A DNA stretch of 64,000 nucleotides, from positions 1 to 64,000 of the IMG/VR virus record IMGVR_UViG_2706795367_000001; one strand, 5' to 3'. The translations under genes and the position numbers were made by a program. Of this stretch, positions 3,571-57,965 are shown one piece after another. Origin of the DNA: a virus. Lineage: Duplodnaviria > Caudoviricetes. Under the pieces are notes generated by a model. It was not told where the DNA came from. It saw nothing but the letters and a program-made list of their open reading frames with translations, and did no database searches. The stretch's first letter is position 1, and every line of letters begins with the position of its first letter.

Positions 3571-5059
3571 ATCCTCTGCCGGGCAGGAAGCGATTGACCT
3601 GGCCGCCGCGTGCGGCCTCATTCTCGACCCGTGGCAGGAATTGTGCCTGCACGAAGCTCTCAAAGAGAGCGACGAGCTTGTTCAGCTGGAGTCCGGCGCC
3701 TGGGTGAAGAAGTGGGCGGCCTCCTCCTTCGGCCTGGTGGTGTCCCGCCAGAACGGCAAGGGTTCGATCCTAGAGGCCCTGGAGTTGGCCGGTCTGATCC
3801 TTTTCGGGGAGCGGCTGATCATTCACTCCGCTCACGAGTTCAAGACCGCCGTCAACGGCATGGAGCGCTTGGAATCCCTGATCGCCAAGTCGGGGCTGAA
3901 GTACAAGGCCAAGCAGGCGCACGGCGCGGAGAGTATCGAAATCCTCGACGGGCCCAACCCGGGCGCGAGGGTGATGTTCCAGACCCGTACCGACCGCTCC
4001 GGCCTGGGTTTGACCGCCGACCGCGTCATCTTCGACGAGGCGATGACCATTACCCCCGGTTCGCTGAAGGCGCTTCTGCCGACCGTTTCGTCTCGACCCA
4101 ACCCGCAGATCGTTTACACCGGGACAGCGGCCGACCAGCGCACACAGCCCTACTGCCACACCTTTGGCGGCGTCCGCTACCGCGCGCTGGAGCAGCTCCG
4201 CACCGGCGAGCGTAAGCGCCTCTGCTTCCTCGAATGGTCAGCCCCCGATGACCTACCGGAGGAGAAGTTCGGCGATCCCCAGTACTGGGCGATGGCCAAC
4301 CCCGGCCTGGGTTATCGCCAGTCCGAGGAGAAGATCCTCGACGAGTACGAGGAGATGTGGGCCAACCTCCGCGACTTCGGGGTGGACCGCCTCGGCATCG
4401 GTGACTGGCCGCAGTTCGGCGCCGGAATATCGGAGATCCCGCTCGACAAGTGGCGGCGACTGAACAACCCCGAACCAGATCTCGCCGGCGCTCGCGCCCT
4501 GATCCTTTACCGCACGCCCGAGGGCGGGCCGTGGGCGATCGTGGGCTCCCAGCGCTGCACCGACGGCCGCATCCACGTGGAGGTCGGTTACGCCGGCACG
4601 GACCCCGTGGACCGCGTGGTCGACAAGTTCATCCAGGCCATCACCGCCTGGGGCCCTGAAGAGATCCTGGTGGGCCGCGGCGGCGCGGCTGAGGTGATCC
4701 CTCAGATCGAGGCCGCCGGGTTCACGGTCTACAGCCCGAACCAGTCCGAGGAGGCCCAGGCCTGCGGCGGCTTTCTGAACGACGCACTCGTCGACCCGGA
4801 AAACCCGCTGCTGTCCCACGGCGATCAGCATTCCCTGAACGCTGCCATCACCCGCGCTGTTAAGCGAGACCTCCCCAGCGGCGGTTTCGTCTGGGACTGC
4901 ATTGAACAAAGCACCTACGCCCAGCTCATGGGCGTCACATTGGGCCGCTGGGCGCTGCTGAAGCACGCCGTCAACGCCAAGCCCACACCCGCTATCCATG
5001 ACTGGCCCGATCAACAAGAGATCGACAGCTGGATACAAGAACTCTACGAGGAGGCTTGA
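3527..5059 (+). CDS. terL: terminase large subunit
   Basis: Walker A SRQNGKG, Walker B VIFDEA, motif III YTGT, ANPGLG; start could be TTG 3494. Confidence 0.95.
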   Translation: MGVQEPRIWLSPEAKSSAGQEAIDLAAACGLILDPWQELCLHEALKESDELVQLESGAWVKKWAASSFGLVVSRQNGKGSILEALELAGLILFGERLIIHSAHEFKTAVNGMERLESLIAKSGLKYKAKQAHGAESIEILDGPNPGARVMFQTRTDRSGLGLTADRVIFDEAMTITPGSLKALLPTVSSRPNPQIVYTGTAADQRTQPYCHTFGGVRYRALEQLRTGERKRLCFLEWSAPDDLPEEKFGDPQYWAMANPGLGYRQSEEKILDEYEEMWANLRDFGVDRLGIGDWPQFGAGISEIPLDKWRRLNNPEPDLAGARALILYRTPEGGPWAIVGSQRCTDGRIHVEVGYAGTDPVDRVVDKFIQAITAWGPEEILVGRGGAAEVIPQIEAAGFTVYSPNQSEEAQACGGFLNDALVDPENPLLSHGDQHSLNAAITRAVKRDLPSGGFVWDCIEQSTYAQLMGVTLGRWALLKHAVNAKPTPAIHDWPDQQEIDSWIQELYEEA

Positions 5060-5061
5060 GA

Positions 5062-5256
5062 TTGTCTGAACCTTCTCGGCGGATCGACATTCAGCCCATT
5101 GTCTCCGGCCTTTTGCAATTGTCGGGCCTCGGCATGGTGATCGGCGGGGTGTATCTCCTTTTCCCGGTCGCCGCGCTGATCCTCGCCGGCGTCGCCGTCT
5201 TTGCAATGGGCTGGGCAATTGATCCGCCGAACCGCCAGAAGGGTGTTAAGCAATGA
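5062..5256 (+). CDS. small membrane protein
   Basis: Two hydrophobic segments between terL and portal; GAGGAGG RBS. Confidence 0.7.
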   Translation: MSEPSRRIDIQPIVSGLLQLSGLGMVIGGVYLLFPVAALILAGVAVFAMGWAIDPPNRQKGVKQ

Positions 5257-6488
5257 GCCTCTTCACCCGCATCTTTTCCGACGGGGAGGGGCCCGAGCAG
5301 CGCGCCGTCGCCAAGTTCGGCATTCCGCCTAAGTGGTCCGAGGTATCCGGCAGTCCGGAGGATTACGTCAACGGGCGCGGCGCCCTGAACCTGGCAACCT
5401 TCTTCTCCTGCGTCCGCCTACTTGCCGACTCTGTCTCGATGCTTCCCATAAAAGCGCACCGGGACAAAGACGGCGTACCCACCATCTCCAAGCCTCAGCC
5501 CAAACTTATGCAGGACAGCCCCTACCCCGGCCTTACCTGGTTTGAATGGCTGTGGATGCTGATGCAGTCCCTCGCCGTCACGGGAAACGCCTTCGGGTAC
5601 ATCACCGCCCGCGATGGCCAGGGCCGTCCGACGGCGATCATGCCAATCCATCCAGATTGCGTCCGGATCGAGGAAGCCGACAAGACCGCCCCGTGGCCGG
5701 ACCCCATCTACCGGATCGGCGGGGAAATTGTCGACAGCCAGGATGTTGTGCACATTCGGCGCTATCCCGTCCCCGGGTGCGTGGTGGGCATGTCCCCGAT
5801 CGAGAAGGCCGCCTCCGCCATCGGCCTAAGCATTTCCGCAGAGCGGTATGGAGCCCGATGGTTCCGCGACTCGGCCAACCCGAGTGGCCTGCTGACCAGC
5901 GACATGGACCTGACGCCCGACCAGGTGAAGCAGACGCAGAAATCCTGGATTCAAAGCCACCAGAACCGACGCCTGCCGGCGGTGATGTCCGCGGGCATCA
6001 AGTGGCAGTCCATCTCAATCACCCCGAATGAATCGCAATTCCTCGAAACCCGACAGTTTCAGAAGTCGGAAATCGCGATGTGGTTCGGAATCCCGCCACA
6101 CATGATTGGCGACACGGAAAAGTCGACGTCGTGGGGGAGTGGTATCGAGTCGATGTCGATTGGCTTCGTGACCTACACGCTGATGCCCTGGCTGGTCTGT
6201 ATCGAACAGGCATTTACAACCCTTCTGCCGCGCGGACAGTTCGCAAAATTCAACGCAAACGCACTACTCCGAGGCGACTACAAAACGCGGAATGAAGGTT
6301 ATCAGCTGGCCATCCAAAACGGGCACATGTCGCCTAACGAGGCGCGGGCCCTTGAAGAGCGTCCACCCATTCCGGGCGGCGACATCTACCTACAGCCCAT
6401 GAACTTCGTGCCTCTTGGCTATGTCCCGCCGGAACCGCCGGCATCTAATCCCCCAGCCGACTCCGGCGAGGAAGGAAAATCTAAATGA
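5253..6488 (+). CDS. portal protein (HK97 family)
   Basis: CVRLLADSVSMLP, GNAF, GMSPI, QFLETR, EIAMWFGIPPHMIG, NEARALE motifs. Confidence 0.97.
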   Translation: MSLFTRIFSDGEGPEQRAVAKFGIPPKWSEVSGSPEDYVNGRGALNLATFFSCVRLLADSVSMLPIKAHRDKDGVPTISKPQPKLMQDSPYPGLTWFEWLWMLMQSLAVTGNAFGYITARDGQGRPTAIMPIHPDCVRIEEADKTAPWPDPIYRIGGEIVDSQDVVHIRRYPVPGCVVGMSPIEKAASAIGLSISAERYGARWFRDSANPSGLLTSDMDLTPDQVKQTQKSWIQSHQNRRLPAVMSAGIKWQSISITPNESQFLETRQFQKSEIAMWFGIPPHMIGDTEKSTSWGSGIESMSIGFVTYTLMPWLVCIEQAFTTLLPRGQFAKFNANALLRGDYKTRNEGYQLAIQNGHMSPNEARALEERPPIPGGDIYLQPMNFVPLGYVPPEPPASNPPADSGEEGKSK

Positions 6489-12126: not shown

Positions 12127-12432
12127 ATGGAAGACGATACGGAAGCAATCGTCGAGGTGGCGATGGAAACCGCCGACGAGAAGGGCGTGCCAATCGTCCT
12201 GCTCGGCGGGCGTCCCGACCACCCGATCGCGGACCTACTCCGCATGAGCGGGGCCCAGTTCCTGCACGCCCAAGACATGAGCTGCACGCCGCGGGCGGTC
12301 TACATCATCGCCGAGCCGCGCTACGGCGAGTATCGCTTCGCCACGGGATCGGTCGTGCTCGACCAATTCGCCAGTATCGCCGATCAGCCCGGGGTAACGG
12401 TGCACCGCAAAGAAGTCTTGGTGGACGACTAA
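12127..12432 (+). CDS. hypothetical protein
   Basis: AGGGG RBS, 101 aa. Confidence 0.7.
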   Translation: MEDDTEAIVEVAMETADEKGVPIVLLGGRPDHPIADLLRMSGAQFLHAQDMSCTPRAVYIIAEPRYGEYRFATGSVVLDQFASIADQPGVTVHRKEVLVDD

Positions 12433-12644
12433 AAAACCACCGAGCCGGCGGGGGATTGGGGCGCATCGGCTCGGTGGTCCGTTTTATCGCAGCGGGCGGC
12501 ACCTCATTGGGTGTCGTGGCGGAACTGGCCCGCTGCGAAGTCTTGAGTTTTAGTGGTCGCCGGACTGAGTGTGGAAGCGTCCGGCGACCGTAACCTTCGG
12601 ACCCAGGCTTGAAAATTGGTTTAATCGGGTTAACCCTCCGGCTA
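12431..12644 (-). ncRNA. candidate antisense small RNA with three hairpins
   Basis: Minus-strand promoter upstream; three perfect 11-12 bp stems; last stem followed by a U-tract. Confidence 0.6.
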
Positions 12645-12650
12645 CGTTTC

Positions 12651-12679
12651 AGTGTAGTGCAGTGCGACTGCTTGCGCAA
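12651..12679 (-). promoter_or_regulatory. SigA-like promoter TTGCGC-N17-TACACT
   Basis: -35 at 12679-12674, -10 at 12656-12651; closely resembles the promoter at 54849. Confidence 0.65.
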
Positions 12680-12769: not shown

Positions 12770-13498
12770 GTGCGAATCATCAGCATGTTGAGCTGGTATC
12801 AAGAGCCCGTTTCATGGCTCGCCGAGTGCGTGTCGGCGCTCTCCAAGATTTCCGACCACGTCGTCGCGGTTGATGGGCCCTACTGGGGCTTCCCTGGCGC
12901 CGTGTTGAAGCCCGCCAGCGGCCCTGAACAGGCCGACGTCATCGCCCGCACCGCGGCCGGACTGGGCATGGGCTGCACCATCCACGCCCCTCGCAAGCCC
13001 TGGTCGGGCCCGAATGGCGGCGAGGTCGCCAAGCGCGACTGGATGATGCAGGCCGCGATGCTGGTCGCAGAGCCGGGCGATTGGCTGCTGCGCGTGGACG
13101 CCGACGAGGTGTTCACCGCCGTCCCGGGTGACGTAAAGCAGCGCCTAGCCGAAACCGACAAGCACGTCGCCGAAGTCATGCTCTGGGAGCGCGAGGCCGA
13201 GGATTCCGTCAATCGAGTGGTCGACGTCGGCGACGACTACGAATCGCCGCTGCGCTGCCTGTTCCGCGCAATCCCCGGCATCCGCATCGAGGGCGCGCAC
13301 TTCGTTGTCTCCGCCCCCGTAGATGGCGAGCGGAGATTCCTCGTCGGTCACAACACGGTGCCCGCAGAGCCCTTGTGGGATGTCCGCCTGGAGCACCGCA
13401 CCCGACTTCGTTCACCCGGCCGCAAGCGCCTGAAGAACGAATACAGCCCACTGATCAATCAATTCGAGAAGGTCGAGGATACGCCTCGCAATGACTAG
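12770..13498 (+). CDS. glycosyltransferase family 2-like
   Basis: VVAVDG, WLLRVDADE DxD motif; GTG after GAGGGG. Confidence 0.8.
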   Translation: MRIISMLSWYQEPVSWLAECVSALSKISDHVVAVDGPYWGFPGAVLKPASGPEQADVIARTAAGLGMGCTIHAPRKPWSGPNGGEVAKRDWMMQAAMLVAEPGDWLLRVDADEVFTAVPGDVKQRLAETDKHVAEVMLWEREAEDSVNRVVDVGDDYESPLRCLFRAIPGIRIEGAHFVVSAPVDGERRFLVGHNTVPAEPLWDVRLEHRTRLRSPGRKRLKNEYSPLINQFEKVEDTPRND

Positions 13499-34557: not shown

Positions 34558-34703
34558 GTTAGGAGTGTATCTCAAAGAAACACTTGTGCACGTGGTCAAA
34601 CGTGATTAGACTCGCGTCTATCAACTTGAGACACCGCCCGGCGGGGCGAAGGCCTGAGAAACCAACCCCGCCGGACGGTCCACCCCCAACAGGAGGCCCA
34701 CCA

Positions 34704-54676: not shown

Positions 54677-54920
54677 ACGCTACTCCATCGTATTGAGATG
54701 TTGCAACAGTGTCGATTTAACTGCGGTGCGGATTTCGTAGCCAAAACCGCTGCTCAGGAACTAATCCGTTGTCTCGCAACAATGTAACTCGACGCCCGAA
54801 AGCGTTGCGGCAACGCAACATTTCGAGGCTGGGGCGTTTGCCAACTCCTTGCGCAGGGTAGGACCATCGCACTACAGTGAAGCGCATCACGAAGTGCAGT
54901 TCACTTGCACGGCAACACCA
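54677..54920. promoter_or_regulatory. genetic switch: divergent promoters and operator-like palindromes
   Basis: Leftward TTGCAA-N18-TAGCGT; rightward TTGCGC-N18-TACAGT (54849-54878); palindromes TGTTGCAACA (54699-54708) and GCGTTGC-G-GCAACGC (54802-54816). Confidence 0.7.
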
Positions 54921-57818: not shown

Positions 57819-57879
57819 GCGCACGGCCGGAATGGTTCGGCACGAATTCGTCAAGGTTCAAATCCTTGCGTGCGCACCA
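57819..57879 (+). ncRNA. 61-nt tRNA-like element lacking a true anticodon arm
   Basis: 7-bp acceptor GCGCACG/CGTGCGC + A-CCA; D-like arm GCCG-GAATGGTT-CGGC; T arm CAAGG-TTCAAAT-CCTTG; only ACGAATTCGT between D and T arms. Confidence 0.8.
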
Positions 57880-57880
57880 G

Positions 57881-57939
57881 TCGCGGGGAGTCGAGCCGGC
57901 TTGTTCTAGCCGAGTGTCGGTTCCTCCCCGCGATTTTTT
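57881..57939 (+). terminator. intrinsic terminator
   Basis: TCGCGGGGAG/CTCCCCGCGA stem followed by T6. Confidence 0.8.
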
Positions 57940-57965
57940 GTACCCAAAATCAGGGAGGTTCGCCC

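Follow-up and report, generated by a model that had tools for sequence, protein, structure and literature searches.

Stem-loop TIGR arrays, which belong to the TIGR-Tas systems, are the closest described relatives of the element treated here. Their units have variable palindromic stems and spacers of 8-12 nt with a box C (CCA) in front and a box D behind (Faure et al., 2025, PMC12045711). The stem-loop tigRNAs derived from them are cut at a CUU that is conserved at the stem's base, and the loop that separates one spacer from the other is mostly 9 nt long (Xu et al., 2026, 10.64898/2026.09.09.750476). A terminator follows the array, and the associated protein TasA is described as an RNA-guided transcriptional repressor (Faure et al., 2025; Xu et al., 2026). 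According to the accessible text of these publications, arrays usually comprise several units, and the box D of the TasR arrays is UG. The same text calls the natural targets and roles of TIGR-Tas open, especially those of the nuclease-free TasA, one reason given being that most loci lie on metagenomic contigs without a known host (Faure et al., 2025; Xu et al., 2026). The window analysed in this study is the stretch from position 1 to 64,000 of the virus record IMGVR_UViG_2706795367_000001, whose source is a Cluster J (Omegavirus) mycobacteriophage and whose full length of 110,764 bp is estimated to be 100% complete. In this window, positions 12431-12679 probably constitute a leftward orphan gene for a stem-loop TIGR guide RNA with a single unit.

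The comparison with the stem-loop TIGR/TasA loci is carried by the middle hairpin of the element (hairpin 2; Table 1). From 5' to 3' on the minus strand it reads AAGACUU, stem, CCA, GUUCCGCCA, CG-ACA-CCCA, AUGAGGUGC, CG, stem. It shares with the published units the palindromic, covarying stem, the two 9-nt spacers, each with CCA before and a box D after it (CG here, not UG), the 9-nt loop and the CUU at the base of the stem, as well as the terminator after the last unit and the carriage by a phage. On the other hand, the genome of the window has no tas gene, there is one canonical unit and no array, and the gene has its own predicted promoter, which opposes the surrounding operon. The element was aligned, and its folds were compared, in 14 Cluster J phages, which fall into two clades, that of the window and another. 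All 14 keep the CCA and CG anchors as well as the terminator, and also AAGACUU, which stands directly 5' of the stem of hairpin 2 and is invariant. Box C precedes each spacer on the minus strand only. A covariance model of the unit, R1, scores hairpin 2 at 79.1 bits (E = 1.8e-20), which is the sole strong match in the 110,764-bp genome. The model does not pick up hairpins 1 and 3, though they stand at an array-like spacing of ~55-60 nt. Two weak matches elsewhere, at 34624-34687 on the minus strand (17.4 bits, E = 0.013) and at 57872-57943 on the plus strand (13.8 bits), are both probably due to chance.

Between relatives, the spacers are either identical or replaced at 13-14 of their 18 positions; the flanks show differences of 3-9%. 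The window and Omega differ at 13/18 spacer positions as opposed to 13/257 positions in the rest of the element (Fisher p = 1e-11), and Minerva and Dallas at 14/18 as opposed to 26/295 (p = 7e-11). In the comparison of Optimus with Constella, 7/18 spacer positions are changed, all of them in spacer A, against 12/292 in the rest (p = 2e-5). In the other listed pairs, for example the window and LittleE, the spacers differ at 0/18 positions, and the rest of the element differs by 0.7-8.1%. Between the two clades this remainder differs by 26-29%, and the tigRNA scaffold is intact in 14/14 phages. As far as sequence comparison can tell, the intact scaffold and the cassette-like spacers argue that the solo guide is more than debris.

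A sequence profile of the intergenic gap that holds the element also matched several places in a 2.2-kb stretch unique to Omega. This stretch contains at least nine more hairpins of the build of hairpin 2, each with a self-complementary stem that is variable and 9-12 bp long, and with a 30-nt loop that carries a fixed nine-letter core. Together with seven orthologues, nine of these Omega paralogues give 16 units that align without gaps; their stem cells are paired in 92% of cases compared with 73% in shuffled alignments (0/500 as high), and both sides change in 8/11 stem pairs. The covariance model found one unit each in the genome of the window, LittleE, Hannaconda, Optimus and Minerva, and at least seven in Omega. 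In viral contigs, a pattern scan followed by the model yielded 107 hits with E <= 0.001 at 77 loci, often arranged in arrays with periods of ~58-60 or 110-120 nt. Among 80 control loci from bacterial genomes with the same pattern there were 11 weak hits, 9 of which were limited to the seeded core, and no arrays. Over 93 distinct units, the mutual information of the stem pairs amounts to 0.5-1.5 bits, and the inner pairs are paired in 92-100%; CCA-N9-CG occurs twice per unit with a conservation of 90-100%, and the CG and CCCA of the loop are conserved in 96-100%. The N9 blocks of these units show no covariation and a random-like composition, and no covariation was detected for extra pairing inside the 30-nt loop. 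The nearest plausible gene lies on the strand that reads CCA-N9-CG for 63/81 units, on the other strand for 6, and is missing nearby for 12, the gene calls resting on a crude filter of GC content by codon position. This orientation rule points to the minus strand in the window, and the promoter and the U-tail agree with it. When a 14-mer of the conserved linker was searched in the bacterial and viral collections, nearly all matches were due to chance, and nhmmer over the loci matched by it recovered only known Cluster J phages. As a separate observation, long open frames cross the hairpin arrays on the gene-sense strand in the viral loci L458 (1212-3005), L415, L418, L414, L441 and L429; in L458, one unit (2502-2572) lies inside a stretch homologous to Tas (2118-2981). 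This embedding may match the published guide units within tas coding sequences, or it may reflect chance openness of GC-rich frames.

The link to Tas proteins was established through Omega gp21, homologues of which were located by tblastn within 1.5 kb of the hairpins in 22/32 loci outside Cluster J and in 0/80 bacterial controls. The NCBIfam model NF052498, “TIGR-Tas system RNA-guided endonuclease”, matches gp21 with 216.7 bits (cut-off 100) over residues 10-244 of 257 and gp74 of phage ConceptII with 232 bits, and NCBI gives the same name to a 48%-identical homologue of gp21. Two further matches are a PDB chain named TasH (E = 3.3e-7, C-terminal residues 124-247 only) and a PDB chain of an IS110 C-terminal-domain protein. 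Pfam returned no hit for gp21 at E <= 0.1, and the NCBIfam IS110 model was not among its matches; the homologue P0052 scores 23.1 bits with that model against a cut-off of 140. Since gp21 lies above the cut-off of NF052498 and no nuclease domain is visible to Pfam, we assign it as TasA. It had been taken as an IS110-like transposase in the part of the work of Pope et al. available to us, where the insertion with gp20-gp22 is an “IS110-like transposon” with a five-base target duplication (Pope et al., 2013, PMC3706429). What is annotated as “transposase” in Omega and in many other mycobacteriophages is TasA.

The insertion in Omega (NC_004688; ~14.4-16.6 kb of the record, 4181-6380 of our locus L003) is a TIGR-TasA cassette located directly upstream of the RNA gene. 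It contains gp21 (TasA), gp22 (assigned to phrog_4604, of unknown function), the small gene gp20 on the plus strand, and at least nine leftward guide hairpins in three groups. Its right end carries a leftward promoter-like TTGCGC-N17-TAGGGT and a stretch that resembles the resident promoter region. The simplest history is a single gain of the cassette in Omega beside an older solo unit, which is favoured because the closest relatives of Omega and the distant clade are all without it; alternatively, the cassette may have been lost by recombination between the copies of the promoter region. Two other explanations of the Omega locus were dropped. A type III toxin-antitoxin system, with gp22 as a ToxN-like protein and the hairpins as its RNA repeats, was set aside as gp22 has no Pfam hit and matches only a PHROG of unknown function; REP-like or transposon-end hairpins were discarded once gp21 had proved to be a Tas protein.

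Tas homologues are present in 91 records of a collection of 50,697 phage records, 83 of them from Mycobacterium phages, mostly of 50-54 kb. In one of these, ConceptII (MH230876; L490 2504-4015), a 340-nt gap between gp75 and gp74, the TasA gene, contains two or more units that belong to the hairpin family and share its orientation. Many of the 50-54-kb mycobacteriophages annotate TasA as “transposase” or as a hypothetical protein, and it is preceded there by a 340-nt gap with guide hairpins and by a homologue of gp22, for which there are 81 records. The ConceptII locus has the immunity repressor and a Cas4-type exonuclease nearby. The loci of Omega (gp20-gp22) and ConceptII (gp74-gp75) share with the window the hairpin family, the orientation rule and the host M. 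smegmatis. Unlike the window, they encode TasA and a conserved partner (phrog_4604) and contain from 2 to 9 or more units.

In the complete 110,764-bp genome no Tas gene was found with gp21, a profile of 24 sequences, PF02371 or NF052498 as query, Omega serving as the positive control. Tas is also absent from LittleE, Hannaconda, Optimus and Minerva, and among the five relatives searched only Omega has it. The guide unit is an orphan, without a Tas (Nop-domain) protein in its own genome.

The RNA gene around this unit is summarised in Table 1. An initial annotation of the window had described a separate non-coding RNA gene on the minus strand, with a promoter, three perfect stems and a final U-tract, and all of these were recovered at the places given there. 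The 14 phages have all kept the promoter, the four hairpins and the U-tailed terminator. The three stems of the annotation form in every fold, with compensatory changes. The minus strand folds with -95 kcal/mol (z = -6.22), a value equalled by 0/200 shuffles, and the plus strand with z = -2.69, equalled by 1/200. The motif UAAAAC, reported from both linkers between the hairpins, is present in the window but was found only in its own clade.

Table 1. Features of the predicted RNA gene on the minus strand of the window (positions refer to the window; paired segments are separated by a slash).
Feature	Position	Strand	Description
Predicted SigA-type promoter	12651-12679	minus	-35 TTGCGC 12679-12674; 17-nt spacer; -10 TACACT 12656-12651
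Leader hairpin	12590-12645	minus	GUAGCC 12645-12640 pairs with GGUUAC 12595-12590
Hairpin 3	12555-12589	minus	11-bp perfect stem (12555-65/12579-89), 13-nt loop; forms in 14/14 folds
CUU at base of guide hairpin	12538-12540	minus	Predicted processing site, within AAGACUU
Hairpin 2	12487-12538	minus	Canonical stem-loop tigRNA unit; stem 12538-12528/12497-12487 (perfect, 12487-97/12528-38)
Box C (CCA) of hairpin 2	12526-12528	minus	
Spacer A	12517-12525	minus	GUUCCGCCA; hypervariable, five versions among 14 phages
Loop	12508-12516	minus	CGACACCCA, 9 nt; box D (CG), three variable letters, box C (C-CCA)
Spacer B	12499-12507	minus	AUGAGGUGC; hypervariable, four versions among 14 phages
Box D (CG) of hairpin 2	12497-12498	minus	
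Hairpin 1 and six U	12431-12478	minus	Intrinsic terminator by terminator scan; perfect stem 12436-47/12467-78; six U at 12436-12431

The leader hairpin was not part of the initial annotation. It encloses the conserved blocks GCCGGAGGG and UUCAAGCCUGG, and its helix, which most of the 14 orthologue folds form, occurs in the compensatory versions GUAGCC/GGCUAC, CAUGCC/GGCAUG and GUGCC/GGCGC; it may be a processing aid. Hairpin 3 has a different stem sequence in the other clade, where its arms are still complementary and its loop is ~27 nt longer, and it may be a decayed guide unit. The terminator formed by hairpin 1 shares bases with the TAA stop codon (12430-12432) of the plus-strand gene upstream. 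Its stem shows a compensatory double change from G-C to A-U in Optimus, Halley and EricMillard, the tail that follows it on the minus strand is UUUUUU or CUUUAUU in all 14 phages, and its loop depends on the clade (GCGCCCCAAUCCCCC in one, CGCGAACCAUCCCCGCGG in the other). The earlier suggestion that the transcript is cut into separate hairpin units fits, by analogy, the published processing at CUU, the site being a predicted one here.

From the promoter sequence, transcription is expected to start near 12645-12643. The hexamers and the spacing of the promoter are kept in 14/14 phages, the -35 element as TTGCGC, TTGCAC or TTGCGT and the -10 element, after 17 nt, as TACACT or TACGCT, while the sequence of the spacer occurs in three unrelated versions. 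The loose pattern TTGCGC-N15-19-TANNNT was found twice in the window as opposed to 0.94 times expected, and at least two occurrences were seen in 26/100 shuffles. The case for the promoter rests on its conservation, as the loose pattern alone is within chance. The second occurrence, at 54849-54878, lies between the immunity repressor and a cro-like gene, before the latter, and is conserved in both clades. It had been regarded as nearly the same early promoter, and the two sites do share TTGCGC and GCACTACA[C/G]TGAA; the second one, however, reads TTGCGC-N18-TACAGT with a spacer of 18 nt instead of 17, and the likeness past the -10 hexamer is restricted to part of Cluster J. Within 54849-54881, the 14-mer CGCACTACAGTGAA does not vary within or between the two Cluster J clades; an operator could be part of it.

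The RNA gene occupies a gap of ~340 nt inside a rightward virion/glycosylation operon, between a plus-strand gene of 101 codons (12127-12432) and a glycosyltransferase gene that begins at 12770. This gap is found in all 39 matching phage records, every one of which is from a Mycobacterium phage; coverage of the query reaches at least 80% in 37 of these records. Around 12431-12679 the window shares 99% identity with Hannaconda, 97% with LittleE and 91-96% with Omega. Neither tRNA nor tmRNA genes were detected in the window.

Several results weigh against an active guide RNA. There is no tandem array, and one canonical unit stands among three or four hairpins; a guide without a partner protein in its genome may be a relic. 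The box D is CG, whereas that of published TasR arrays is UG. Among the 969 stem cells of the 93 units, wobble pairs (G:T or T:G, 18) are as rare as A:C or C:A (20), and since both kinds of mismatch are equally rare, the wobble pairs pick no strand; near-perfect Watson-Crick pairing would also fit a palindrome acting at the DNA level. The replacement of spacers in blocks could be due to neutral recombination with other arrays and not to selection. The target searches, finally, returned nothing above chance. With two 18-bp layouts of the spacers, the best sites in the phage's own genome have 3 mismatches of 18. The viral contigs returned 4 exact matches to one layout and 0 to the other, which is about chance. 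Bacterial genomes gave at least 120 hits with one layout and 44 with the other, the excess lying in unrelated genes; this is no target signal, because in GC-rich codons the complement of the 18-mer translates to EVLAE, a common peptide word. When the spacer pairs of 95 units, those of Omega included, were compared with the genome of the window, the ConceptII locus and the Omega locus, the 4 hits with up to 2 mismatches were about as many as predicted by chance. The TIGR authors themselves note, in the text available, that short spacers yield many false matches (Xu et al., 2026). As an observation in its own right, the 18-mer built from the spacers is several-fold over-represented in the bacterial loci L495-L614, which calls for caution in searches with short guides.

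These points have to be set against what other explanations of the locus achieve. We consider it unlikely that the element is what remains of a TIGR-Tas locus that was lost or never completed, a relic no longer functional as a guide whose promoter and hairpins were kept for another role, for instance to terminate transcription both ways or to insulate at the border between the capsid/glycosylation and the head-tail genes, or to act as antisense RNA against the late transcript. The missing Tas gene, the single canonical unit and the failure of the target searches made here would all be explained by it, as would hairpin 3, which resembles a decayed unit with a 27-nt deletion in the loop in the clade of the window. 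With A6 next to one arm and a weaker T-rich run next to the other, hairpin 1 could terminate transcription on both strands, but the tail after it on the plus strand is poor in the larger clade (GGCAAGTTGG). At odds with a relic are the CUU, both CCA, both CG and the exact 9-9-9 spacing, which are kept in 14/14 phages despite 26-29% divergence of the non-coding sequence, and spacers that are replaced as whole blocks and show no decay.

The initial annotation had interpreted the gene as a trans-acting small RNA (sRNA) whose C-rich loops pair with Shine-Dalgarno sequences, in the manner of the actinobacterial 6C-type RNAs. The C-rich loops of hairpins 1 and 2, the strong fold of the minus strand and the conserved promoter and terminator agree with this, yet we regard it as very improbable. 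The conserved C-rich letters of the middle loop turned out to be the box C (CCA) and box D (CG) anchors of a TIGR guide, CCA and C-CCA being fixed in a family which accompanies Tas genes, and its variable letters are the two 9-nt spacers; the letters that vary fastest are those which a pairing sRNA must keep. Moreover, the loop of hairpin 1 differs between the clades, and no Rfam family, 6C or other, reaches its gathering score anywhere in the window. A small protein gene on the plus strand, as exemplified by gene 17 of Hannaconda and gene 20 of LittleE (45 codons, 12456-12593), is hardly credible. Although a small coding sequence is annotated in the gap in 8/15 of the relatives' records that were opened, the other 7/15 have none, and the annotated ones vary from phage to phage in start, position and length (78 to 354 nt). 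The indels, namely the ~27-nt loop insertion and gaps of 1-2 nt, are not multiples of three, and the substitutions preserve base-pairing and not codons; the coding sequences annotated in the gap are probably spurious.

With an orphan guide RNA as the preferred reading, a mechanism can be sketched. The RNA would be transcribed from the predicted promoter and then cut at the CUU, and the resulting tigRNA would be loaded onto a TasA supplied in trans, for which Omega or the 50-54-kb mycobacteriophages such as ConceptII are candidate donors. The complex would bind an 18-bp DNA site via both spacers and block a competitor's transcription or replication, or else the RNA might soak up the competitor's TasA. 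That the solo guide serves Cluster J phages as a weapon or shield in their conflicts with other phages, by redirecting the TasA of a co-resident or co-infecting phage to an 18-bp site of their own choice or by blocking it as a decoy, is a tentative and rather doubtful proposal. If it were true, the block-wise replacement of spacers among near-identical phages would be the trace of an arms race, and this would be the first natural TIGR guide acting with a protein from another genome.

A mobile element that carries only the RNA half of an RNA-guided system and either depends on or disturbs a protein made elsewhere would have its analogue in CRISPR biology. Virus-borne mini-CRISPR arrays and solitary CRISPR repeat units serve as RNA anti-CRISPRs. 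Both the RNA family and the protein family are different ones there. The bridge RNA of IS110 elements, whose evolutionary link to TIGR is stated in the accessible text of Faure et al. (2025), is likewise a structured RNA with loops that contain short paired guide segments and with binding by a Nop-like domain. In contrast to the bridge RNA, however, the unit described here is a single hairpin and not a two-loop structure, and no RuvC/DEDD domain is seen for gp21 in Pfam at E <= 0.1.

TIGR-Tas itself is already known, and as far as our searches reach, a conserved solo guide without its protein appears to be undescribed. No solo tigRNA was found in the literature searched, which comprised the available text of the TIGR papers; their supplementary tas tables lie outside it and may list loci of the Omega or ConceptII type. 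In the text of these two papers that is accessible, the word “orphan” is absent, and “mycobacteriophage” appears in Faure et al. only in the title of a cited review (Faure et al., 2025; Xu et al., 2026). Because the published catalogue, according to the text available, was built around tas loci, it would miss a solo unit (Xu et al., 2026).

The guide RNA described here occurs in cultured and sequenced phages of M. smegmatis, with dozens of natural variants that differ almost only in their spacers. Owing to these cultured phages and variants, the Omega cassette and the 83 Tas-carrying records of Mycobacterium phages, the action of the guide in trans, its targets and the replacement of its spacers are directly testable. 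The finding brings the open role of TIGR-TasA in nature into a tractable phage-host system.

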